Source: an uncultured Bacilli bacterium (GTDB taxonomy: Bacteria > Bacillota_I > Bacilli_A > RFN20 > CAG-826). From it: a stretch of DNA of 64,000 nucleotides. This document shows, piece after piece, positions 15,131 to 43,650 of this stretch; positions within the stretch are counted from its first letter, which is position 1, and each line of letters begins with the position of its first letter. The stretch is from assembly GCA_944358985.1 (NCBI GenBank), contig CALVSI010000002.1, positions 51,413-115,412 on the forward strand, written 5' to 3'. Below the pieces are notes generated by a model. It was given only the letters and a program-made list of their open reading frames with translations, made no database searches and was not told the DNA's origin. The position numbers and the translations under genes are program-made.

Positions 15131-15907
15131 ATGAGCAAATCTTACAAAAAAGCGATAACAGTTGGCGTTGCTGCATTTAGCGCGGTTGCACTCTTAACGA
15201 CAGGTACCGCAGCATTTATTTTGGCAACGGAACAAACTAAAACAACAACTGGAAACGTCACAGTTGGACAAGTAGTTGATAACAACATCGTTTTAAAAGT
15301 CAATGCACCAACAAATGAGATTGTTTTTGATGCATCAAGCGGTGATACAACTGGTAAAGTTCAATGGGATGGAACAGATAGTGAGAATTTAACCACTAAA
15401 GTTACTGGCTATGTCTTACCTCAAGAATTTGCCACTGCTTATGATAGTGGAACTACTAGCTTTGATTCTGATTCACAAAGTGCATTAGCGGCTACTCTTG
15501 CTAACTATGATTTATATTGGACATTAACAATTTCCACTGATGGTGCAGAAGAGACTGGTGATAAAGATGCTTTTGAAGGATTAGTTTCTTACTATACTGG
15601 TAATGCTAGCAGTTCAGAAAAACATACCGCATCTAGCGAAGTTGCAGTATTAGATAGCGGCATTTATTATGGTGCTGATTCTAAAAATGTTTTAACTCCA
15701 AATGAAAATGGTGAATTTGAAATTACTCTTTCATTTACTTGGGGAAGTTTATATGGAAATAAGAATCCGTCTGTTTATTTCGATGAAGACTCTCAAGCAA
15801 ATATAGATCATGCTTCCTTAGTTTCTAGTTTAGAAGCTATGAATACACTTGATGGCATCAATTTTGATATTACCATCTATGCAAAATATAAAGCAGCAGG
15901 AAATTAA
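15131..15907 (+). CDS. TasA/camelysin-like secreted protein with a SipW-cognate-type N-terminal signal.
   Basis: 258 aa (TasA is 261 aa). N-terminal K-rich region plus hydrophobic helix, followed by 'TTGTAAFILATEQ', which resembles the 'GGGTWAAFND' cleavage region of TasA. Sits immediately upstream of the SipW-like peptidase. Confidence 0.6.
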   Translation: MSKSYKKAITVGVAAFSAVALLTTGTAAFILATEQTKTTTGNVTVGQVVDNNIVLKVNAPTNEIVFDASSGDTTGKVQWDGTDSENLTTKVTGYVLPQEFATAYDSGTTSFDSDSQSALAATLANYDLYWTLTISTDGAEETGDKDAFEGLVSYYTGNASSSEKHTASSEVAVLDSGIYYGADSKNVLTPNENGEFEITLSFTWGSLYGNKNPSVYFDEDSQANIDHASLVSSLEAMNTLDGINFDITIYAKYKAAGN

Positions 15908-15965: not shown

Positions 15966-16964
15966 ATGACAAACGAGGAAATTTTAACTCTTGTAGTTAC
16001 TTCGTTGTGTGTTGTTTCATTATCTATAGTTTTTACATTGTTTTATGTCCACTACTACAAAAACTCAATTAAAACTATTGATGAAGGACGTAAAGATATT
16101 GAAATTATTGATGATAATATAGACGAACAACTCAAAGCCAAAAGCAAAAAACATAAAATATTTGTTATTGTAATTAAAACAATATCATATTTATTTAGTG
16201 CATTGGTTTTTGGGGTGTTCGTCTTGTCTGTAATTAATCGTATCTCTGGCGGATCAATTGTTGTTGGAAATTCCACTGTCATGGTCGTGGAAACTGGTTC
16301 AATGTCATATAAAAATGAAGTTAACACTTATCTCGAATCACATGACAATCAAATAGCCACTTATTCAATAATTGGTCTTGATAAAGTTGAAGAAAATGAA
16401 TTAAAACTATACGACGTCATCGCATTTAAAAATAATGAAAATGAAATCATAATTCATAGAATTATTGGTATTGAAAATGACCGGTATTTAACACGTGGTG
16501 ACGCAAACGATTCAACGGACCCTTATCGTCCTGTGTTTGAAGATGTTATAGGGGTTTATAATGGGTTCAATATTCCCTACTTAGGAATATTTATAATATT
16601 CCTTCAATCTAATTCTGGTATTGTTACAGTGATTGCTATTCTATATTGCCTAATATTATTTGGAATATTATCAGATAAAATTGAGAGAAAATTAGAAACA
16701 AGAAAAAAAGAACTTCTAGAAGTTATTGACGTTGATATCAACAACAAAAACTTAAATCATGATTTTATAGAACGAATATATTACAAAGGCTATGTATATA
16801 GTTTTAATAACAATAATTTTATTGGAAAAGAAAAAATTAAAGACGATGATATTAATACCCCAAATGAAAAATCTGAGATTATAACAATAATAGAAGATAA
16901 AGATAAAAATCTAACTATAAAAAAAGATAAAATTCATCATGCCGATGAGGAGGAGAAAGTATGA
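15966..16964 (+). CDS. sipW: Signal peptidase I of the archaeal/ER type (SipW-like, S26B), with an extra N-terminal TM hairpin and a charged C-terminal tail.
   Basis: Catalytic 'VVETGSMSY' matches 'SGSMEP', and 'YLTRGDANDSTDP' matches SipW 'ITKGDNNxxxD'. C-terminal TM segment followed by a K/E/D-rich tail. No RBS in front of this ATG, so the start is uncertain. Confidence 0.75.
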   Translation: MTNEEILTLVVTSLCVVSLSIVFTLFYVHYYKNSIKTIDEGRKDIEIIDDNIDEQLKAKSKKHKIFVIVIKTISYLFSALVFGVFVLSVINRISGGSIVVGNSTVMVVETGSMSYKNEVNTYLESHDNQIATYSIIGLDKVEENELKLYDVIAFKNNENEIIIHRIIGIENDRYLTRGDANDSTDPYRPVFEDVIGVYNGFNIPYLGIFIIFLQSNSGIVTVIAILYCLILFGILSDKIERKLETRKKELLEVIDVDINNKNLNHDFIERIYYKGYVYSFNNNNFIGKEKIKDDDINTPNEKSEIITIIEDKDKNLTIKKDKIHHADEEEKV

Positions 16965-18781
16965 AAAAGATCTACTTTACAAGAAAAAATTTAATCGAAC
17001 TAGGATTTGTATTTCTATTTTTTGCATTATTTTTATTTGTTTATGTTTGTGTTGATGGAAACCACACATTTATGGCAAAAGAAAATCCAGTTGAATTAAT
17101 ATATTTAGGTTTTAATTTCCCAAGTGTTGGATTAGGCATAATGGGATATTTAGTTGGACTTTTATTCACTATCTATGGCGTAGTTTATGATGCTGGACTA
17201 ATTTTAATTAGACGATTAGTTAAGTTTAGAAAAGAAAGATTTTGGTCCACAAAATGGGTATTAATAAATATTGGTTGGTTAATACTTTGTTTATTATTGT
17301 CTCTTGGTCTTGGAGCAGGACTTGCCGCGATCATTGAACCAGAAAACGTTTCACTAATAATGATGGCTTTTGGAGGTTCATTACTTATTAGTGTTTTGGT
17401 TTATATCATAGCTGCAATGATAATCGGTGCGGTTTTCTTATTAATTGTTAACTTTAAAAACATTGATAAGCCCTATCGTTTCTTTAATATTGATGAGCAA
17501 GAACAATATGAACAATCAATAGATGAAGAAATAAAACAAGAAGAAGATTCACAAGCTAATATTGAACAGCAATTTGGCGATACACCAATTAATAAAAACA
17601 TATCAAATAACAATATCGTTGGACAAGGTGGTGCTGTTATGAGTGCAACCACGTCCGCTAGTAATGAAATTGTTTTAGGAGATCGAGAAAAAGTATTTCC
17701 ATCTTTATCTAGCATCGATAAAGATTTTTCTGGTTTTGAGGAAAATAACTTAGCGGATATTGATATTAATTTAGACAAATTATGTAACGAATTTAGAAAC
17801 TATCTTTGTAAAGAAGAAAATTTATATTTTGATATTGAAACAATTAGAAGTTTTATTTCCGCGTTAGCGACTTCAAGAATTATTATTTTAGAAGGTTTAT
17901 CTGGTACTGGTAAATCATCACTACCTAGATATTTTTCAAAATTTATTTCTAGCGATTCTACTTTTATCGCAGTTCAAACTACATTTAGAGATAAATCATC
18001 GTTGATTGGTTATTTTAATGATTTTAGTCAAACTTATAATGAAACAGATTTTTTAAAAGCATTGTATAAAGCAAACTATACAAAAGACCATATCAATGTC
18101 ATGGTTTTGGATGAATTTAATATTGCTAGAGTGGAATATTATTTTGCAGATTTTTTAAGCGTATTAGAGTATCCAAAACAAGATTGGAAAATTCGCGTGA
18201 TGAATTTACCATACGAATTTGACGCTCCAACAATGTTGCATGATGGCGTTTTAAAAATCGAAGAAAATACATATTTTGTATGTACAGCAAACAAAGACGA
18301 TTCAACTTATTCTATTTCTGATAAAGTCTATGATAGAGCTATAATTCTTGACTTTGATGATAAAAACGAACCATTTACTGTTAAGGAAGAAGTTAAACCA
18401 ATTCGTTTAGGATATCATCAATTACAAAAATTGTTTAATGATGCATTAAAAGATAAAAACAATCGTCTTACTGATGACGATTTAAAACAATTCAGTGCAA
18501 TTACAAATTATGTATTAGAAAACTTCGATGTTGCTTTTGGTAATCGTATTTTGAACCAAATTAACACATTTGTCCCAGTCTATGTCAAAACAGGCGGAAC
18601 AAAACTTGAAGCATTAGATTTTATGTTTGCGCGTAAGATTTTATATAAGTTGGAAGGACGATTTGAAGATTACGTCAAAAATAATCTTATTACTTTAAAA
18701 CATTTGATTGAAAAAACTTATTCAACAAACGAATTTAAAATATCAAAGCGTATGATTGATCAAATGATTAAGCGTTTATAA
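16961..18781 (+). CDS. Membrane-anchored AAA_5 (McrB/MoxR-type) ATPase.
   Basis: About 5 N-terminal TM helices, an acidic Q/E-rich linker, then Walker A 'LEGLSGTGKSS', 'VQTTFRDKSSLIGYF', Walker B 'VMVLDEFNIARVEYYFADFLSVLE' and sensor 'FVCTANKDDSTYSISDKVYDRA'. These are collinear with E. coli McrB 'IFIIDEINRANLSKVFGE...GLMNTADRS'. GAGGAGGAG RBS. ATGA overlap with sipW. Confidence 0.7.
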   Translation: MKKIYFTRKNLIELGFVFLFFALFLFVYVCVDGNHTFMAKENPVELIYLGFNFPSVGLGIMGYLVGLLFTIYGVVYDAGLILIRRLVKFRKERFWSTKWVLINIGWLILCLLLSLGLGAGLAAIIEPENVSLIMMAFGGSLLISVLVYIIAAMIIGAVFLLIVNFKNIDKPYRFFNIDEQEQYEQSIDEEIKQEEDSQANIEQQFGDTPINKNISNNNIVGQGGAVMSATTSASNEIVLGDREKVFPSLSSIDKDFSGFEENNLADIDINLDKLCNEFRNYLCKEENLYFDIETIRSFISALATSRIIILEGLSGTGKSSLPRYFSKFISSDSTFIAVQTTFRDKSSLIGYFNDFSQTYNETDFLKALYKANYTKDHINVMVLDEFNIARVEYYFADFLSVLEYPKQDWKIRVMNLPYEFDAPTMLHDGVLKIEENTYFVCTANKDDSTYSISDKVYDRAIILDFDDKNEPFTVKEEVKPIRLGYHQLQKLFNDALKDKNNRLTDDDLKQFSAITNYVLENFDVAFGNRILNQINTFVPVYVKTGGTKLEALDFMFARKILYKLEGRFEDYVKNNLITLKHLIEKTYSTNEFKISKRMIDQMIKRL

Positions 18782-18791
18782 TGGAGAGCAT

Positions 18792-20171
18792 ATGCGGCTT
18801 AATAATGTTCAAACGCTTTTAAATACATCTGATGAATTACTTAATGTCTTTGCAAAAGTAGAAACAAAAAAAGATGCATATAAGGCTTTAATTAATCATC
18901 AACTTAAAGACATTACAAAAGATGACTTTAAATTGGACTATGAGTTTTTAGATTCTTTAAACTCTATTTTAAACACTATTTTAAATATATGTAGGAATCA
19001 TTATAAAACTACTAAAAATAATGAGTTAATATTAAGGAGTTCTTTAATTTCTAATTTTGATAATCAAAGTTTTTTTAAAACCATGAAAGACTTTTCTCTT
19101 TGGAAGAAAAAAGATAGTAATATGGTTCCAGAATTTGCATATAGTAACGAATTAGTGGATGATAATAATACTTATGAAAATCGTGTTGTGATGTCATTAG
19201 TTAAACATATTGAACTCATAATAAAAAATTATGATTATTATTATGATAAAAAGATTTTAATATTAGAAAATACGGCATCTAAAAATGACTTTACATATGG
19301 AAGTATGTTTTATAAGCAAAACAAAGCATTGATAAGCAATCTTTTAACAAATAAATATCAAGATTTTATTAAAATTAGTGAATACATCAACAAATTAAAA
19401 AAGAAAATAAAAAAGATTGAAAGCACTCCATTTTATCATTCACTTAAATCTTTCCATCCAATAATTGGAGAGATTATTATGACTAATATTTTCAAAGAAA
19501 ATTTAAATTACAATAAAATATATCGTTTTTATAAATTAACAAATAGTATTATCGATGTTAAAAAAGGAAATATAGCGTTAACAAATTACGTTTTATATTT
19601 GCTAATCCAATCTTTACAAAGATTAGGATATGAATATGTTAATCGTTATCCATACGCTAAATACACTTCATATGGTAAAAATTTAATTGTTTCTGATAAA
19701 ACTTTTTATTTTAAAAATTCTATGTTTAATATATCAATTGAATATGAAGGAGATATAAAAGCCTATATCATTGATATTTCCAATTCAAACAATGAAAATG
19801 ACAATTCCAAGAATTTATTAATACCTTATTACGCTATTAACGGCCAAATAAACATAAATATGTCAAAAATTGATTGTAGTTTGTACAATAATATTATTAT
19901 TTTTGGCTATGATTTTGTTAAAAAATATAAAAATAACGAATATAAGAAGATTAACATATCTCTTAATCAAAAAGATTATGAAATCATAGATGTTCTTTTA
20001 TCATCTTTTACATACACGATTAATGCTTTAAAAGATATATATGAAACGATGTGTCCAATATGCGGAGCACATCAAGTAGAACCAACTTCAAATGATATTG
20101 AATGCATGAATTGTAATAATCACTATTCATTTTTAAATGACAAACTTGTTTGGATTAAATCAATAGTTTAA
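18792..20171 (+). CDS. Partner protein of the AAA_5 ATPase, with a C-terminal zinc ribbon. Possibly McrC/PD-(D/E)xK-like, but this is unproven.
   Basis: 459 aa, no TM. C-terminal 'CPICGAHQVEPTSNDIECMNCNNH'. A possible nuclease-like 'LIVSD...x19...EYEGDIK' motif. Sits in the position where McrC follows McrB. Confidence 0.4.
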   Translation: MRLNNVQTLLNTSDELLNVFAKVETKKDAYKALINHQLKDITKDDFKLDYEFLDSLNSILNTILNICRNHYKTTKNNELILRSSLISNFDNQSFFKTMKDFSLWKKKDSNMVPEFAYSNELVDDNNTYENRVVMSLVKHIELIIKNYDYYYDKKILILENTASKNDFTYGSMFYKQNKALISNLLTNKYQDFIKISEYINKLKKKIKKIESTPFYHSLKSFHPIIGEIIMTNIFKENLNYNKIYRFYKLTNSIIDVKKGNIALTNYVLYLLIQSLQRLGYEYVNRYPYAKYTSYGKNLIVSDKTFYFKNSMFNISIEYEGDIKAYIIDISNSNNENDNSKNLLIPYYAINGQININMSKIDCSLYNNIIIFGYDFVKKYKNNEYKKINISLNQKDYEIIDVLLSSFTYTINALKDIYETMCPICGAHQVEPTSNDIECMNCNNHYSFLNDKLVWIKSIV

Positions 20172-20183
20172 AGGAAAAGTATT

Positions 20184-20948
20184 ATGGAAGAAGAAATTAA
20201 ACAACAAGCAATAGCAATTAAAATTTCTAATTTAAATAAGTCATATGGCAAAAAACAAGTTCTCCATGATTTAAATTTAGAAGTCTATGAAGGAGAATTA
20301 TTTGGTTATGTTGGAAAAAATGGTGTTGGTAAATCCACTACTATTGATTGCTTAATAGGTGCTAAAAAATTTGATAGTGGACAAATTTTAATTAATGGAT
20401 TTGATATTAAAAAAGAATCATATAAAGCTAAAAAACAATTTGGTTATGTCGCTAGCGAACCAACGACATATGAAATGATGACAGGTTATGAATATTTGCA
20501 ATTCATTGGCTCTGTTTATGATATGAACGATGAAACATTCAAAAATAATGTTACTTATTTATCAAACAAATTAGACTTGCCTGATTCTGATTTAAAAATG
20601 GTTATATCTAGTTACTCACATGGTATGAAACAAAAACTTTGCTTGATAGCATCATTATTATCAAATCCAAAAGTGTGGATATTAGATGAACCCACTGTCG
20701 GTTTAGATATTATGGTATTTGAAACATTAAAAGAAATGATGCAAGAATTTGTAAAACATGGCAAAACAATTTTTATCACATCGCATAATATTGATTTAGT
20801 TGCTAAAATTTGTGATCGTGTTGCATTAGTAAATAAGGGTAAAATTCAAAAAATAATAGATTTAAAACAAGATCCTGATAAACGCTATCAGTTAAATAAA
20901 ATCTTTTTAGATATGTATAAGGAGGATAAAGATGATTGCCTTGCTTAA
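20184..20948 (+). CDS. EcsA-like ABC transporter ATP-binding protein.
   Basis: Walker A 'GKNGVGKSTTI'. Atypical signature 'YSHGMKQK', like EcsA 'FSKGMKQK' rather than LSGGQ. Walker B 'ILDEPTVGLD'. Confidence 0.7.
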   Translation: MEEEIKQQAIAIKISNLNKSYGKKQVLHDLNLEVYEGELFGYVGKNGVGKSTTIDCLIGAKKFDSGQILINGFDIKKESYKAKKQFGYVASEPTTYEMMTGYEYLQFIGSVYDMNDETFKNNVTYLSNKLDLPDSDLKMVISSYSHGMKQKLCLIASLLSNPKVWILDEPTVGLDIMVFETLKEMMQEFVKHGKTIFITSHNIDLVAKICDRVALVNKGKIQKIIDLKQDPDKRYQLNKIFLDMYKEDKDDCLA

Positions 20949-36920: not shown

Positions 36921-39077
36921 TTATTTATTACTATGTTTTTTCTTTTTAAGAATAACCGCGACTATGATAATAGCGGTTACATTGCTTGCAATAACTAATG
37001 ATATCATACAAATGAGGATTTGAGTATCATTAATGTTGTTATATAAATATGGCGCTAATAACAAATCAACACCTCTTGACATGAAGTCAGGATATTCGCT
37101 CGCACCATATTTTTGAATAATATAATCATATCTTTCCACACATAAAGCAATATCATCACTTCCACTGCTAGCTGCAGTTTTAAATAATTGTTTATCTTCC
37201 GCGGATAGTGTCATAAACAAACTGCTTAAATTATTCCAAACATCTTTACTTGGTGCACTATTACCACTTGGATTACAAACTAAATCATTTAAAAAGTCGT
37301 TTGCAAATTCACTAGCGCTATAGGATTGTTCCACTAATTTATATAATTGGATAGCGGATTGGTTTTGATAACTAGCTGATTTGTAATATCTAAATCCATG
37401 CCAACCACTATTAAAACGAAAATGGGCACTTGAAGATGCAATATCGGTTGAATTACCAACATAAGAAATTGAATTAGAAGGTGCCGGTGAGGAAGAAACA
37501 TCAATTCTGTTATCGTTTTTGCTACTATAAATGTATCTTGTTCCATCATAACAAATATTATATGCACCACTTGTCCCGCTTATCTCAACAGCATAACTTG
37601 CCGCGTCAGTGTCACTTATAACACCATCATCAATAGAAAACTCAACATAATTGCCAGATGAATTAACATTATCTGCTCCTGGATTAAAAACATAACCTAA
37701 ACTATTAGAAGATTCATAAACAATTAAATAAGTTCCATTATAATCATTTAATTGACTATCAACTTTTTCAAAACTTCCACTTACAGCAGAACTACTCACG
37801 ACATTAATTGTCGCTGTCGCAGTAATATTATTATTCATTAAAGATGTTGCTTTAATAGTGGTACTTCCTTGTCCAATACCTCTAACTAAACCTTGGGTAT
37901 TAACACTAGCAACACTTGGATTTGATGATTCATATTTGACACTGCTACTCGCATTACTAGGAGTTGGAGTAATTTTTAATTGCAATGTTTCATTAATTTT
38001 AATTGTTTCAAAACTTGGAGAAATAGCAATGCTTTCTAAAACAATAGCTTTGCTAACTGTAATATTGCAAGATGCAGTTAATAAATCACTTCCAAAATAT
38101 GCTTGAGCGGTTATAACTGCATTTCCTTCACTAACTGCAGTTAATAAGCCATCGCTATCGACAGTAACTACATCATTATTATTTGAAGAATAATTAACAT
38201 CAATATCTGGATAACCATTCACATAAGCATCTAATTGATATTGTTCCCCAACTTGTAATGACAAATTTGAAGGCATAACAATATTATCGCCATCGCCCCA
38301 AATATAATTAGCAAATTCTGGATGATCCACAAACGGATTTCGATTGCCTTGATTTTCATAAACAGCGTTATTACGGAAAATATCACGATCAGTAACCGAA
38401 TAAGTATTATGCCAATCTAAACATGTTTCCACACTATCAAAAATATCAGTGATTTCATAATCATAATAAATACAGCAATACATAACAGCGCGAGCAACTT
38501 CCCCTTTCGCCTCGTCACATGGTTCAAAATAACTGCCTGTCGTATAACAATCTCTTGCTACTCCGTAAGTTTTCACTTGATTTGCGGAAGTATGAGCTAC
38601 TTCACCAAAATGTTTGCTTCCTCTAACGTTGTTAATATAACCTTCACAAGCAAAAATATTGTGATTATCAGTCTTAGAATTTGGAAAAGCAGTTTGAGTA
38701 AATATATGTTCTCTATTCCATGTTGTAGATGAATAACTACCGCCAGCATGAGCACTCTTATCAAATAACACTCGACTATATAAACAAATTACTTTATTGT
38801 TATGTCCCTCGGCTTCATCTGCATCTTCATATCTATCCCAATCATAACTTTTCGAACGAGGATTGTTAAAAGTCGCTAATTCGTTACGAAGTTCATCTCC
38901 TGTCAAATTCAAGCAATCATCATAATAACCATTAGGATAATCACTAACTTGCTCACCACTATAAGCATACGCACTTTCTATTGAATCATATTTAACAATT
39001 GAACTTGTTGTTGATGACACAATAGAAAAAGCAAACGCCGCTAATAAGAATAACTTTGTTATTGATTTTGTTTTCAT
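36921..39077 (-). CDS. Membrane-anchored extracellular nuclease of the endonuclease I (EndA/Vvn) family, with two Big_2 Ig-like domains.
   Basis: 'NREHIFTQ', 'DNHNIFACEGYINNVRGSKHFGEV' and 'FEPCDEAKGEVARAVMY' match the 'EHVWP / DLHNL..N..RGN / FEPPD..KGDVAR' blocks. Big_2-like 'VTVDSDGLLTAVSEGNAVITAQA'. C-terminal TM plus KKKKHSNK tail. GAAGGAGAAA RBS. Confidence 0.75.
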   Translation of the reverse strand: MKTKSITKLFLLAAFAFSIVSSTTSSIVKYDSIESAYAYSGEQVSDYPNGYYDDCLNLTGDELRNELATFNNPRSKSYDWDRYEDADEAEGHNNKVICLYSRVLFDKSAHAGGSYSSTTWNREHIFTQTAFPNSKTDNHNIFACEGYINNVRGSKHFGEVAHTSANQVKTYGVARDCYTTGSYFEPCDEAKGEVARAVMYCCIYYDYEITDIFDSVETCLDWHNTYSVTDRDIFRNNAVYENQGNRNPFVDHPEFANYIWGDGDNIVMPSNLSLQVGEQYQLDAYVNGYPDIDVNYSSNNNDVVTVDSDGLLTAVSEGNAVITAQAYFGSDLLTASCNITVSKAIVLESIAISPSFETIKINETLQLKITPTPSNASSSVKYESSNPSVASVNTQGLVRGIGQGSTTIKATSLMNNNITATATINVVSSSAVSGSFEKVDSQLNDYNGTYLIVYESSNSLGYVFNPGADNVNSSGNYVEFSIDDGVISDTDAASYAVEISGTSGAYNICYDGTRYIYSSKNDNRIDVSSSPAPSNSISYVGNSTDIASSSAHFRFNSGWHGFRYYKSASYQNQSAIQLYKLVEQSYSASEFANDFLNDLVCNPSGNSAPSKDVWNNLSSLFMTLSAEDKQLFKTAASSGSDDIALCVERYDYIIQKYGASEYPDFMSRGVDLLLAPYLYNNINDTQILICMISLVIASNVTAIIIVAVILKKKKHSNK

Positions 39078-39229: not shown

Positions 39230-42200
39230 TTAAACAAATTTTGAATATCTTTGTATCAAATACATTATATCCGAATAACTTATCAGACCTTTTCCGATAG
39301 ATACCTTTAGATAAGGGACTGGAAAATGAGAATAAAATTCATACGAAATTAAATCTTTAAAATCATCATATGTGAATAGCCCATATTTATCTATGTCTGC
39401 TTTCATCAACTCTTCATCGTATTTTAAATTTGCATCGTATTCAAATATATTAAATAATCCAGAAATTCCGCCAGGCATAGATAAGATATCTTCAGTAAAA
39501 TAATTTAAATGCCATGATGAAACAGGCGAATAAACTTTTGTATATTTCTGCTCGATATGTGCTTCTAATAACGTAACTATAGAAGCATTGCCACTAGAAT
39601 CAATGGCATAGAAATTATGACCAACAAAATCTATGTAGTTATTTTCAGTAAAATATACATATTTATTTAAATCAATGTCAAAAAATCCATGTTCCGACAC
39701 TACCCCTACATTTTTATTATTACTAAATTTCAAATTGATAACAACGCATTTTCTAAAAGGCTCAGAATCATTAAAAACAACTGGTGCAATGTCAATAATG
39801 CCTTTTTCATGATTGAATACTTTTACCATATCACCAGAAACAATATCTTTTACATATTTGACAGAGCCATCAGCCATAGTAATAAGAGTATCAGGCAATA
39901 AACATGGTGGTTTTTCGTCAGCTTTTGCGTGCCCTGAATAGTAGCCCATTTCAAACTTGTATTCCAAACCTGGAGCAGTATCAGCGTTTCCAGCTAAAAA
40001 TGCTCCGCTTACAGAACTTGTCGTATCATTAATCCATTCTGTTGTCGGTTGTGGACTAAAATTTGGGTCATTTGTGGTTATATAATTGTTTGCTGTGAAT
40101 CCATTTTGCCCGCTCCACGAGATAATAGTGTCGCCTTCTACCCACTCATATCCTATCCTAAAATAGTATCCTTTTTTAACATAATGTTCAGCAATTCCAG
40201 CAGCTTGTAGACGATATGTTTCTGTCCAAGGTCCATCTTGTGAAAGAGATTCTTCAATATAATATCTTGTGTGACCGGTGCCTGCTGACCATTCTGCCTC
40301 ATTATCATCAAAATTAGGATCTTTAAAAACACTGAGCGATACTTTAACACCTTCTGTTGGAACAATATTGATCTCAAAATTCCCATCAACATAAATCCAC
40401 GATGAATCACTGTAACTTATAGTTTCAATTCCGTTTTTTGTAATAGAAACTTGAACAGCATCGTTAACAACAATATTGAAATATAGTCCGCTTGCGATTT
40501 CTGTACTCCCATCATTGCTTGAATTTACTAATGAACTATCATAAGCATTTGATCCATCAGAATTTTGAGAAATAGTAATAGTGTAATCAAAAACAGGATG
40601 CACAATGCTCTTATCATATGTAACTGAAATTGTGAAAGTTGTGGAAAATAAGCCATCCCAATAGTAGTTAGAACCATCACTATTAGAAGTATATGTAGTT
40701 TGTGCTGAGAATTGACCACTAATAATTGTGCCATTGGAAATAAAATTGCCTGATGAAGTAACAATGACAGACACATTAGCAGTTCCTTCTTTAGCTTCCG
40801 CGCTTAAATAACTATTTGCTGAAATGTTTGAAAAATCCAAAAAAGCTTTTCCGGTTGTAGACGTGTGTGTAATGATTGCACCCAAATAGCCATTATTTTG
40901 TGAATCGGCATTTACTTTAATAGTGCCGTTAACAAGAAGTAACGCATCGTCTTTGCCAGTAGAATCATATCTTATTCCTAAATCTGCATTTACTTCTGGA
41001 GCGACACTTGAATTATAAAAAACTAGACTTTCATTAACATTTAGTGTTCCACCTTCTTCCACAATCATTTTAGAGCCCATCAAAAACTTTACTTTTTGAT
41101 TGCAATTAAAAATGCCGTCATCTCTAACGTAAATGGAGATTTTTGAAGATAATGGAAGATGAAATAGCCTTGTATCCAAAGTTATTCCGTAAACATCTAA
41201 TTCAATATAACCGATGTCTATCTCCCCATTAATAACAATACTGGTGCCATTAATATTTGTTGATCTTGAACCATATAATACATTAGTCGGTTTGTATTCT
41301 AATTCAATACTACCAGATTTAGTATAAATCAACGAAGGATCTCTGCTAGAGGAAGGTAAGATAGCAGCCAAATTGCTCGAGTATGACATATTACTTGGTC
41401 CTACTACTATAGCATTTGTATACATGCTTGCACCATGTTCAATAGTTGTATATGTCTGAAGTGCTTGAAAATCAAAAACATTAAATGGTGATTGATTTAC
41501 ACTAATTGCGCCAGTTAAATTACCACCACTTAAAACATCATATAAAGCTATGTATGTATTCAACACAGCACCATCATTAACTTTCAAAAATCTTTCGTTA
41601 TCAAAAGAATTATCAATAATATTTTCATATTGGCTCATTCCAGAATGCCTAGCATTGCTACTATCTTCCTTTAAATAACCGAAACAATTAAAAGTTGATC
41701 CTGGATTGCACGTAATAGAACTTTTTTCACCAAGATTAATTTCACAATAATAACCATTGTTCCCATTATATGATGTCGCCCCTCCAAGATTTAAAATTCC
41801 GTTTAATATAATATCTGAACTATTTCTCATATTTATAAGAATAGAGCGATAAGTATCGACATTACCTTGTGCATCGCCTAATTTATTACCATACAAATTT
41901 CTATCGTCGGAACTTTTAATTTTATATAGTGTTTCTTCGTTGTTGATGTTGCCTCCTGTCGCTGAACTATTATTGGCTTTTCCGATAAAAGGAATTGTTA
42001 ACGTTACCCCGCTTTTTATTTCGATTGTTTCATAACAATTTATTATCGTTTTAACATAAACGATTATTTCTTGTCCGGAATCTGCTTCTTCTAAAGCTTT
42101 GTTTAAAGTTCGATAATTTGTTCCTGTATCGCTGTTATAACAAATATATGGTGCCGTTTCATCAACTACAGCTGTTGCATTATCATAATTTAAATCACCA

Positions 42201-42289
42201 TAAACTATCCATGCAGCTTGACCAATGCTAAAAAATGCAAGGAGAGCAGAAATCCATATAGTAAAAGAAAATATCGTTCTTTTTAGCAT
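39230..42289 (-). CDS. 1019-aa secreted beta-helix-rich surface protein with a C-terminal Hint (bacterial intein-like) domain and an ~85-aa C-terminal tail.
   Basis: N-terminal signal followed by 'GQAAWIVYGD'. Hint block A 'CLLPDTLITMADGSVKYVKDIVSGDMVKVF', block B 'VVSEHGFF', and a C-terminal 'VYSPVSSWHLNYFTEDIL'. Confidence 0.65.
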   Translation of the reverse strand: MLKRTIFSFTIWISALLAFFSIGQAAWIVYGDLNYDNATAVVDETAPYICYNSDTGTNYRTLNKALEEADSGQEIIVYVKTIINCYETIEIKSGVTLTIPFIGKANNSSATGGNINNEETLYKIKSSDDRNLYGNKLGDAQGNVDTYRSILINMRNSSDIILNGILNLGGATSYNGNNGYYCEINLGEKSSITCNPGSTFNCFGYLKEDSSNARHSGMSQYENIIDNSFDNERFLKVNDGAVLNTYIALYDVLSGGNLTGAISVNQSPFNVFDFQALQTYTTIEHGASMYTNAIVVGPSNMSYSSNLAAILPSSSRDPSLIYTKSGSIELEYKPTNVLYGSRSTNINGTSIVINGEIDIGYIELDVYGITLDTRLFHLPLSSKISIYVRDDGIFNCNQKVKFLMGSKMIVEEGGTLNVNESLVFYNSSVAPEVNADLGIRYDSTGKDDALLLVNGTIKVNADSQNNGYLGAIITHTSTTGKAFLDFSNISANSYLSAEAKEGTANVSVIVTSSGNFISNGTIISGQFSAQTTYTSNSDGSNYYWDGLFSTTFTISVTYDKSIVHPVFDYTITISQNSDGSNAYDSSLVNSSNDGSTEIASGLYFNIVVNDAVQVSITKNGIETISYSDSSWIYVDGNFEINIVPTEGVKVSLSVFKDPNFDDNEAEWSAGTGHTRYYIEESLSQDGPWTETYRLQAAGIAEHYVKKGYYFRIGYEWVEGDTIISWSGQNGFTANNYITTNDPNFSPQPTTEWINDTTSSVSGAFLAGNADTAPGLEYKFEMGYYSGHAKADEKPPCLLPDTLITMADGSVKYVKDIVSGDMVKVFNHEKGIIDIAPVVFNDSEPFRKCVVINLKFSNNKNVGVVSEHGFFDIDLNKYVYFTENNYIDFVGHNFYAIDSSGNASIVTLLEAHIEQKYTKVYSPVSSWHLNYFTEDILSMPGGISGLFNIFEYDANLKYDEELMKADIDKYGLFTYDDFKDLISYEFYSHFPVPYLKVSIGKGLISYSDIMYLIQRYSKFV

Positions 42290-42292
42290 GGT

Positions 42293-42970
42293 TTATTCCG
42301 CCGTTACAACAAGATTTAAATTGAAAGATGGAACATTTGTTGAATCAAATCCATTCCCAATTTTTAAAAGATTAGAATTAAAAACATATGATAATTCGGC
42401 TTTCGCAATATCATTTTCATTCAAAATATTGCTGATAGCAAAAGTTGACTGTATTGTTTCGTTTATTGTGTCGTTGTTTTTATCTATATCAACATTACCA
42501 AGTGGAGCAATTGTTGAAGTACCACTTAAAATTCTAAAAGTAACCGAATTTAAAACTATTTGTGATGAATTATTAAAATGGTTAGTATCATTTAATGACA
42601 GACTGCTTTGAAAGATGGTTTGTTTATCATTCGTAAACAATCCATTTTGCTCAGCAAATCTCATATTTATTTGAAGGTAAAACGTAAGTGTGCCAGTATC
42701 AACAATCTCGCTGTTCGATACGAAACCTTCATCGCAAAACGAAAAACAAGAATATCCGCTAGGATATATTGAAGTATCAAACGCGATAAATCCTTCAACA
42801 CCACCAACATTAATATTTTCACTATACTTTACAAAATTATCATCATAACCAATTAAAAAACTAGCAAATCCACCAGAAATTAGAGATAAAGATATTAAAA
42901 ATAGTAATCCTCCACCATAGAGATGTTTGGATAGAATTTTAAGCAAAGTTTTTTTAAAATTTTCTTTCAT
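42293..42970 (-). CDS. TasA-like small secreted protein carrying a SipW-cognate-type signal. Second copy, and first gene of the Hint-protein operon.
   Basis: 225 aa. '...GGGLLFLISLSLISGGFASFLIGYDDN' resembles the 'GGGTxAxFxD' SipW-cognate motif. 3-nt spacing to the downstream gene. Confidence 0.5.
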   Translation of the reverse strand: MKENFKKTLLKILSKHLYGGGLLFLISLSLISGGFASFLIGYDDNFVKYSENINVGGVEGFIAFDTSIYPSGYSCFSFCDEGFVSNSEIVDTGTLTFYLQINMRFAEQNGLFTNDKQTIFQSSLSLNDTNHFNNSSQIVLNSVTFRILSGTSTIAPLGNVDIDKNNDTINETIQSTFAISNILNENDIAKAELSYVFNSNLLKIGNGFDSTNVPSFNLNLVVTAE

Positions 42971-43076
42971 AATTGCCTGGTTGATATTTTACATGCAATG
43001 TAAAAATAATGCAAGTTCAGGCAAAACTTGAAATTATGAGTGTCTAAAAAAGTGCCCATATATAGTGGAAATATTC

Positions 43077-43460
43077 TTAGACATTATTTATTTTGTCTAA
43101 ATAAAAAATATAATTCTTTCTTATAACAAAATTATTGTTTCCATTAGATACAATTGTTAGTTGATTGTTTTCATATTTTAAAATGATGATGCTAGTTACA
43201 CGATCTCTTATCACACAAGAATTAATATTATGTGATTTAAAATAGTCAATTAATGCATCATTTAGACTAACGTTATTTATATTAAAATCCGTTAAATCAA
43301 GGAAATCACCACTTGCAAATGTTGTTTTCCAAATTAATCCTTTGTTTACTTCCGCATTAGTGGTTGAAGAATGAATTGCGAATCCATCAGCGGATCTATC
43401 TGGATTTTCATTAAAAATTTTAATGAATAAATTTTCATGTCGATACGCATATAAATTCAT
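43077..43460 (-). CDS. Small cytoplasmic hypothetical protein (~127 aa from an internal ATG).
   Basis: ORF with no signal peptide. Start ambiguous: neither candidate ATG has a good RBS. Confidence 0.35.
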   Translation of the reverse strand: MNLYAYRHENLFIKIFNENPDRSADGFAIHSSTTNAEVNKGLIWKTTFASGDFLDLTDFNINNVSLNDALIDYFKSHNINSCVIRDRVTSIIILKYENNQLTIVSNGNNNFVIRKNYIFYLDKINNV

Positions 43461-43650
43461 AATATTTCCACTTTCATAAATTAAAAAAATCATAAATAGA
43501 ATAATGGCTGAGTTACCCGCTGATTATCTATTGTGGTAAGTAGATATCGCTAGCCAAATTCAAATCTATCACTTTCAAATCTTTTATTAAGTAGTTCAAT
43601 TTCTTTTTTTCTACCATATGGATAAATAGACATGCTTCCTGCTAGCGTTT

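Follow-up and report, generated by a model that had tools for sequence, protein, structure and literature searches.

A gene pair with TasA-like signal endings in an uncultured gut bacterium of the class Bacilli is the remnant of a second sipW operon

The question raised by this locus is why two adjacent genes, located 22.3 kb from the nearest gene for a SipW-like signal peptidase, encode exported proteins whose N-terminal signals end in the same way as that of a protein encoded directly beside this peptidase. The genes are found in a 64,000-nucleotide (nt) stretch (hereafter the window) of contig CALVSI010000002.1, which has a G+C content of 28.8%, reads cleanly with genetic code 11, and comes from an uncultured, low-GC gut bacterium that belongs to the class Bacilli. 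The pair encodes a small protein of 225 amino acids (aa) and a giant protein of 1019 aa that ends in a Hint-like module, whereas the gene adjoining the peptidase gene (sipW1) encodes a protein of 258 aa. An examination of the letters alone, here called the sequence-only reading, had concluded that the three proteins form a dispersed set of substrates served by a SipW-like peptidase. The three open reading frames (ORFs) that it named are present with the N-terminal strings that it quoted, and the 258-aa gene is indeed the only one of the three that adjoins sipW within the window. Only 3 nt separate the stop codon of the 225-aa gene from the start codon of the 1019-aa gene. The two therefore form one operon, as had been proposed. 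The distance of 22.3 kb from sipW1 had been given as 23 kb.

Comparison with a sister strain demonstrates that a deletion has reduced a second sipW operon to the present second locus. The protein closest to the 1019-aa protein is P0038 (94% identity), encoded on contig L001, which has ~94% nucleotide identity to the window. In a blastn alignment, L001 matches window positions 46517-43581 and 43505-35001, and carries between these matches an extra segment of 5.85 kb (L001 2930-8783) that is missing from the window. The segment contains, in order, genes for an AAA_14/DUF4143 protein, a 225-aa protein with the motif GSGFSAWHF (GSGFSAWHFQTE), a SipW paralogue (SipW2), a 210-aa protein with the motif GIGYSAWYF (GIGYSAWYFADN), and most of a 753-aa protein with the motif SGLSAWYFNH (complete gene at L001 6953-9214). 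SipW2 has 298 aa, retains the catalytic boxes, and shares 35% identity with SipW1 (phmmer, 7e-34). In L001, sipW2 and these three additional motif proteins are thus encoded immediately upstream of the 225/1019 pair, and from this gene order the pair forms the end of a sipW2 cluster of six genes.

In the window, the junction carries ~48 bp of filler. A nearby ORF of 138 aa aligns with the C-terminus of the L001 753-aa protein and has no signal peptide. Because this truncated gene has been left in the window, the event must have been a deletion in the window lineage. The separation of the pair from sipW results from this recent deletion, in which sipW2 and three motif proteins were lost, and not from an originally dispersed design, so the notion of a dispersed substrate set needs correction. 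SipW1 is the sole SipW copy remaining in the window and, although encoded 22.3 kb away, would be the only one left there to process the pair.

The signal ending common to the three window proteins is real, although the pattern originally written for it was one residue out of register. In that form, G-[GTQ]-[AF]-A-x-[FWI]-[IL]-x-x-x-[DE], it matches the 225-aa protein only. A corrected motif, G-x-A-[AS]-[FW]-[IL]-[ILV]-x-x-[DE], fits all three proteins, beginning at residue 25 of the 258-aa protein, residue 23 of the 1019-aa protein, and residue 34 of the 225-aa protein, and it has no match elsewhere among the 50 proteins (20,342 aa) of the window. Across 2000 shuffles of the N-terminal sequences, the corrected motif was never matched, and a looser form, G-x-[AS]-[AS]-[FWY]-x-[ILVFM], never reached three matches. 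Since the corrected motif had been fitted post hoc from three sequences, we built an independent weight matrix of 13 columns from 12 sipW-flanking proteins of other genomes, none of which belongs to the 225-aa or 1019-aa families. Over 19,742 positions of window proteins, this matrix places the 225-aa site at rank 1 (score 12.9) and the 258-aa site at rank 2 (score 11.8), with a score of only 6.4 for the next best position at rank 3.

The motif has the layout of the TasA cleavage site. In TasA, the site VGGGTWA↓AFND carries Trp at P2 and Phe at P2', and processing needs SipW, an endoplasmic reticulum (ER)-type peptidase (PMC10269814). P-type signal peptidases handle an aromatic residue at P2' poorly, and none is present in 143 LepB substrates (PMC10269814). 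Aligned in the TasA register (TWA↓AF), the motif gives Gly at P3, Ala at P1, a small residue at P1', and an aromatic residue at P2'. A small P1 and an aromatic P2' are found in all three window proteins. Specifically, the 225-aa protein has G34 at P3, F35 at P2, and F38 at P2', and the 1019-aa protein has W27 at P2' (predicted cleavage positions in Table 1).

This layout recurs throughout the three protein families, whose alignments were anchored at the aromatic position and numbered according to the TasA site. None of the families matches an entry in Pfam or NCBIfam. A word search recovered 2 close relatives of the 225-aa protein, and an exhaustive HMMER search (E<=0.001) recovered 34. The 258-aa family has 35 relatives, and the 1019-aa family has 19 near-full-length homologues (34-94% identity), all from metagenome-assembled genomes (MAGs) of uncultured Bacilli or from gut metagenomes. 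Phe or Trp occupies P2' in 67 of 68 distinct family members (21/21 in the 258-aa family, 18/18 in the 1019-aa family, and 28/29 in the 225-aa family, where the remaining member has Tyr), and Ala or Ser occupies P1 in 62 of 68 (21/21, 16/18, and 25/29, respectively). Gly at P3 is found in 21/21 members of the 258-aa family, 29/29 of the 225-aa family, and 8/18 of the 1019-aa family, all 18 of which carry a run of small-small-[WF]-hydrophobic-hydrophobic residues.

Conservation of the signal greatly exceeds that of the mature proteins. In the 225-aa family, where mean identity is 27%, LSLxSxGF[AS]SWxI is the best-conserved stretch of the entire protein, and G34 is invariant among 29-31 members. 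In the 258-aa family, the first ~30 residues are almost invariant despite synonymous changes in the DNA, the mature part is ~35% identical, and the housekeeping proteins encoded by neighbouring genes are 70-84% identical. Synonymous differences beneath an invariant peptide indicate selection on the peptide. From these alignments, the signal peptide is under purifying selection, and the motif is a real, selected feature common to otherwise unrelated proteins.

A search for additional loci was conducted by scanning metagenome contigs from human gut samples with a five-sequence SipW alignment, which yielded 52 loci. A scan with a two-sequence alignment produced poor patterns and no loci. Together with the earlier loci there are 57 sipW genes, which form 8 clusters at 90% identity. 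Among the 335 non-sipW genes of the 52 loci, 104 encode the loose motif within the first 60 residues, and all 104 flank sipW. A typical locus has two tandem 258-family genes upstream of sipW (GFAAWVI and GFA[AS]WLI), whose membership was confirmed with a mature-only profile, and a member of this family adjoins sipW in every sipW1-type locus examined. Upstream sequence exceeds 4 kb in 33 loci, and 28 of these also have a divergent gene of ~220-245 aa (GFS[ST]W[IV]I) followed by a gene of 1150-1590 aa, whose product begins at a non-ATG start and has an N-terminus with a related ending, SADWII or GYWII.

In the L013/L016 lineage, the small gene, which is divergently oriented and located 2.7 kb from sipW, encodes a homologue of the window 225-aa protein that matches in the mature domain (E 2e-7 to 2e-8). 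In two other lineages, the small gene matches the 225-aa family by full-length profile only, largely via the signal. Adjacency to sipW is seen for the 258-aa gene, the L001 pair, and the L013/L016 homologue, but neither for the pair in the window nor in ~8 further contexts described below. Judging from gene context in the 52 loci and L001, the 225-aa, 1019-aa, and 258-aa proteins very likely belong to a set of substrates associated with SipW, and to this extent the proposal that a SipW-like peptidase serves several substrates is partly supported.

SipW1 itself scores 59.8 bits with TIGR02228 (cut-off 51.85), as expected for an ER/archaeal-type signal peptidase I. With NF046067, the equivalog model for Bacillus SipW (cut-off 190), it scores 65.3 bits, and the deleted paralogue scores 31.5 bits. 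Because these scores are below the cut-off, the proteins are SipW-like and are not orthologues of Bacillus SipW. Five clade members show no variation in the boxes GSMS (S112), IIHR (H164), and RGDAN (D179), consistent with an enzyme of the Ser-His type, and we presume that these three residues correspond to the catalytic residues of SipW. A Ser-His dyad has been described for SipW (PMC10269814). A loose probe for P-type signal peptidases found no match in 0.87 Mb of loci and is uninformative.

The same five genes always follow sipW1 (window 16961-24952, plus strand), and they have the same order in L012-L066 even where SipW identity is only 37-40%. One encodes a ~600-aa protein that combines N-terminal membrane helices with an AAA_5 domain, and another a DUF2357-like protein (~400-460 aa). 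The others encode an ATP-binding cassette (ABC) ATPase, a ~530-aa membrane protein, and a ~770-aa protein. These genes may constitute a dedicated export or assembly unit.

Table 1. Positions of the features discussed, numbered from the first nucleotide of the window
Feature	Position	Strand	Basis or remark
258-aa exported protein	15131-15907	+	directly upstream of sipW; motif GTAAFILATE at 15203-15232
SipW1, 332-aa SipW-like ER-type signal peptidase I	15966-16964	+	TIGR02228
1019-aa exported protein with C-terminal Hint-like module	39230-42289	-	ORF list
Hint-like module from Cys796, with conserved tail of ~110 aa	39233-39904	-	invariant Cys796 and His867
Motif GQAAWIVYGD of the 1019-aa protein	42194-42223	-	predicted cleavage A25↓A26
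225-aa small exported protein	42293-42970	-	ORF list; n-region, hydrophobic segment, motif, beta-sandwich domain
Motif GFASFLIGYD of the 225-aa protein	42842-42871	-	predicted cleavage A36↓S37
Conserved 5' cassette of the 225-aa gene	42855-43128	-	96.7% identical to L006
138-aa ORF, 3' stump of the 753-aa motif-bearing gene	43077-43493	-	alignment to L001 6953-9214
Deletion junction	43506-43580		blastn of the window against L001

We consider it probable that the 225-aa and 1019-aa genes form a conserved two-gene module of exported surface proteins, whose Sec-type signals terminate in a TasA-like layout and are cleaved by SipW. The aromatic residue at P2' would make these precursors poor substrates for a P-type signal peptidase and would commit them to the ER-type SipW. 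Cleavage would then take place at the positions given in Table 1 and, in the 258-aa protein, at A27↓A28. More speculatively, the new N-terminus, [AS]-[FW]-hydrophobic-hydrophobic-x-x-acidic, may serve as an exposed beta-strand comparable to those of mature TasA and TapA. Residues 28-38 of mature TasA form the donor strand of the fibre, with contacts via F29, I32, and F39, and the N-terminus of TapA mimics this strand, being the only segment common to both proteins (PMC9674648). By analogy with these proteins, we infer both the cleavage and where it falls, as well as the reliance on SipW1 in this strain and a possible role as strand donor.

Several results weigh against SipW cleavage of this pair. 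The weight matrix places the 1019-aa site only at rank 10 (score 3.9), and for this reason the motif evidence, which is strong for the 225-aa and 258-aa proteins, is weaker for the 1019-aa protein alone. A short hidden Markov model (HMM) of the N-termini, which the sequence-only reading had recommended as a check, was not discriminating when built from 36 sipW-flanking N-termini of other genomes. It gave E=0.17 for the 225-aa protein, missed the 1019-aa protein, and scored lipoprotein signals equally well, and it was replaced by the weight matrix of the motif core. Moreover, neither the NCBIfam signal-peptide models nor Pfam Peptidase_M73 match the three whole proteins or their isolated N-termini at E<=10. 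The resemblance to the TasA/camelysin cleavage region thus holds for the layout of small P1 and aromatic P2', but it does not extend to the curated SipW-cognate and camelysin models.

Similarly, a TasA fold (the Peptidase_M73 jellyroll) was considered for these proteins but is not supported, since there is no match to PF12389, no match among PDB sequences, and no support from AlphaFold2 (AF2) models. The model of the 225-aa protein has a predicted local distance difference test (pLDDT) score of 79.8 and a predicted template modelling (pTM) score of 0.71, with pLDDT above 90 in the core (residues 60-225) and below 50 for residues 28-57, which include the motif. On these structural results, membership of the TasA fold family is unsupported. 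In addition, the hydrophobic segments are long (17-19 residues) and unusually conserved and would also suit a retained membrane anchor. Finally, with an identity of only 35% between SipW1 and the deleted SipW2, cross-processing of the pair is an assumption.

Gene context also provides a point against the reading. In ~8 further distinct contexts, from MAGs labelled uncultured Bacilli or Bacillota, the pair occurs with no sipW in its flanks, which reach as far as 10 kb if the contig is long enough. Whether the pair is physically linked to sipW therefore varies between loci. The pair itself is kept in them, with a gene of ~200 aa always directly upstream of a gene of ~1000 aa and with the motif in both.

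Two additional arrangements of the pair were observed. One MAG carries two divergently arranged copies (L011 3666-12844; 226 + 1408 aa and 211 + 1146 aa) with the motif in all four proteins. In MAG UBA743 (L010 9534-12999), the pair looks degraded, with a small gene that lacks its N-terminus and a large gene that is split (409 + 264 aa), which could reflect a pseudogene or an assembly error.

The mature parts of these proteins have been exchanged between strains. Locus L006 and the window have 274 bp in common at 96.7% identity, comprising 157 bp upstream and the first 39 codons of the small gene. The similarity is lost abruptly just behind GGFASFL and is not regained until the large gene has ended, such that L006 5132-8950 takes the place of window 39250-42854. 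Likewise, L012 and L014 are 97% identical in the flanks of a 258-family gene that has been replaced from approximately codon 32 to its stop codon (L012 8095-8753; 48% aa identity). The two replacements indicate that the mature parts are exchanged as alleles, the breakpoint falling where the signal ends, and allele exchange of this kind is typical of exposed surface antigens.

These breakpoints bear on an alternative that we regard as unlikely, in which the signals are of the ordinary Sec kind and open to cleavage by any signal peptidase I, or SipW is the sole signal peptidase, and the ending is kept for a function after cleavage or as an anchor for recombination rather than for peptidase specificity. 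The replacements at both loci begin right after the motif, as a recombination anchor would predict, and G-x-A↓A fits the general (-3, -1) rule as well. However, recombination alone is insufficient to explain why the motif persists, with synonymous changes, between family members of 20-25% identity and across unrelated families. P-type peptidases are also known to avoid an aromatic P2' (PMC10269814), and one strain keeps two SipW paralogues, each among motif genes. In addition, the sole clear non-lipoprotein signal of the window that is without the motif, that of a 718-aa nuclease, is not encoded near sipW.

This nuclease is encoded just downstream of the pair (36921-39077, minus strand) and combines endonuclease I with two Big_2 domains. 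Its signal peptide is of the ordinary kind and lacks the motif, a transmembrane anchor is present at its C-terminus, and the protein provides an internal contrast for surface-protein retention in this organism. By comparison, no C-terminal anchor is present in the 225-aa, 1019-aa, or 258-aa proteins. Together with hydrophobic segments of anchor-like length and N-terminal peptides far better conserved than ordinary cleaved signals, this difference would fit an uncleaved N-terminal segment that retains the proteins in the membrane as a signal-anchor, with G-x-small-small-Trp/Phe as an interfacial or helix-packing feature. Such retention would suit reduced, possibly wall-less Bacilli, and the BsaA oligomers of Clostridium perfringens are membrane-anchored (PMC11580942). 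We nevertheless judge a signal-anchor to be quite improbable because the motif places small residues at -3 and -1, as is canonical for cleavage sites, aligns residue by residue with the experimentally cleaved TasA site (PMC10269814), and occurs in genes grouped with that of a signal peptidase that retains intact catalytic boxes.

A chance likeness among hydrophobic signal peptides, which might be suspected because the motif was defined post hoc, its earlier form fits one protein of three, and a generic N-terminal HMM is not specific, is so improbable as to be negligible given the shuffling result, the top two matrix ranks, the family-wide conservation of the aromatic residue, and the restriction of the motif to genes beside sipW in the 52 loci.

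Overall, we conclude that the system is a divergent variant of the SipW/TasA-type arrangement built on hypervariable surface proteins of unannotated families. As in the tapA-sipW-tasA operon of B. subtilis and the sipW-tasA-calY cluster of B. cereus, an ER-type signal peptidase is encoded among its own substrates, which here are predicted ones. The substrate signals end in small-aromatic-Ala↓small-aromatic, as GTWA↓AF in TasA and GGFA↓SF in the 225-aa protein. As with TapA and TasA, the candidate substrates are unrelated in their mature parts and have the N-terminal segment alone in common, which in TapA and TasA becomes a donor strand after cleavage (PMC10269814, PMC9674648). Unlike tapA-sipW-tasA, the present arrangement yields no Peptidase_M73 or curated signal-model match, and its cluster adds a gene for a transmembrane AAA_5 protein, a DUF2357-like gene, and an ABC transporter set. 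Its candidate substrates are hypervariable allele cassettes, one of which encodes a 1019-aa Hint protein. The peptidase also differs from Bacillus SipW in having extra N- and C-terminal extensions and in falling below the equivalog cut-off.

The sipW-bsaA-bsaB-bsaC locus of C. perfringens provides a second point of comparison, since one SipW is associated there with several presumed substrates, including a large one unrelated to TasA (BsaC, a 70-kDa vWA protein), and strain-to-strain rearrangement of the substrate genes has been reported (PMC11580942). There, however, the substrate genes lie in one block with sipW, BsaA and BsaB are distantly homologous to TasA, and no Hint domain is present, whereas here a whole sipW paralogue and three candidate substrates have been deleted and two candidate substrate genes orphaned.

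The C-terminal module of the giant protein resembles those of intein-like and Hedgehog-type Hint proteins, in that a conserved first Cys and a His mark a Hint-like domain at the end of a large, variable, secreted protein. Cys796, whose codon position was confirmed, and His867 are invariant in 18 sequences of the 1019-aa family, as expected for the nucleophile and its His partner. The Pfam Hint model gives 12.5 bits for the 1019-aa protein and 20-28.7 bits for homologues, which is consistent with a Hint domain but below the cut-off of 29.7. The initial assignment to Hint is thus reasonable on the invariant residues and falls short by the Pfam threshold. Unlike known Hint proteins, all members score below this cut-off and carry a conserved tail of ~110 aa that belongs to no known family, and self-cleavage is putative. 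A PDB sequence search with the tail returned only weak matches (E 0.26).

The same Hint core and ~110-aa tail also end P0059 (28% identity over 272 residues), a protein of 1760 aa (L067 165-5447). This protein has a canonical camelysin-type N-terminus, GTTFAWFTD, and matches PF12389 above threshold at residues 8-60. Its neighbours are small proteins with canonical TLAFYT and SLAWFTD endings, in a TasA/camelysin-like cluster of another organism. P0059 is thus an independent pairing of a SipW-type N-terminus with the same Hint C-terminal module. A search of the published literature found no link of SipW with Hint domains or with Mollicutes, and the pairing of the two modules was not found there. 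The large genes beside sipW in L013-L066 were considered as members of the 1019-aa family, and this was rejected by profile search. The complete large protein of L013 has no Hint match, and most of the other large genes are C-terminally incomplete.

In the small protein, the hydrophobic segment (residues 17-33) is followed by the motif and then by the beta-sandwich domain at residues 60-225. A single superfamily for the 225-aa and 258-aa proteins was considered and rejected, since the mature parts alone give an hhalign probability of 4%, and full-length profile matches between the families are due to the signal region. Both partners of the pair have a conserved Cys near the start of the mature protein, namely Cys79 of the 225-aa protein (42734-42736) in the context FxxCxxGF and Cys50 of the 1019-aa protein (42140-42142) in the context xCYN. 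These residues could permit an intermolecular disulfide.

A far-reaching extension of the preferred reading, SipW cleavage of the module, can be considered, although we think it decidedly doubtful. The N-terminus produced by cleavage might act as a universal 'plug' strand, by which cargo docks through strand complementation on a fibre or scaffold of 258-family proteins. The cargo would consist of the small beta-sandwich protein and the giant protein with a self-cleaving, maybe covalently attaching Hint module, with alleles swapped at the signal boundary. If true, this would represent a modular, antigenically variable, and so far undescribed surface organelle of gut Bacilli.

Several consequences follow for related systems. 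The SipW-type arrangement is extended to uncultured low-GC gut Bacilli with unannotated substrate families, and candidate substrates can be found where curated models fail by a simple rule, namely that a small-small-aromatic run follows the hydrophobic core. The natural loss of one sipW paralogue, with two substrate genes kept, offers a ready test of cross-processing by paralogous SipW proteins. Hypervariable surface proteins that are swapped exactly after the signal bear on surface variation among gut commensals, as does the recurring pairing of a SipW-type N-terminus with a C-terminal Hint module.

A scan for promoters and terminators gave 28 sites where 29.8 were expected and is uninformative in such AT-rich DNA. 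The promoter region of the 225-aa gene does contain an element of ~45 bp (window 43027-43074; L001 9222-9265) that recurs in L006 (2374-2424) at 88-98% identity, where it is located upstream of an unrelated lipoprotein gene.

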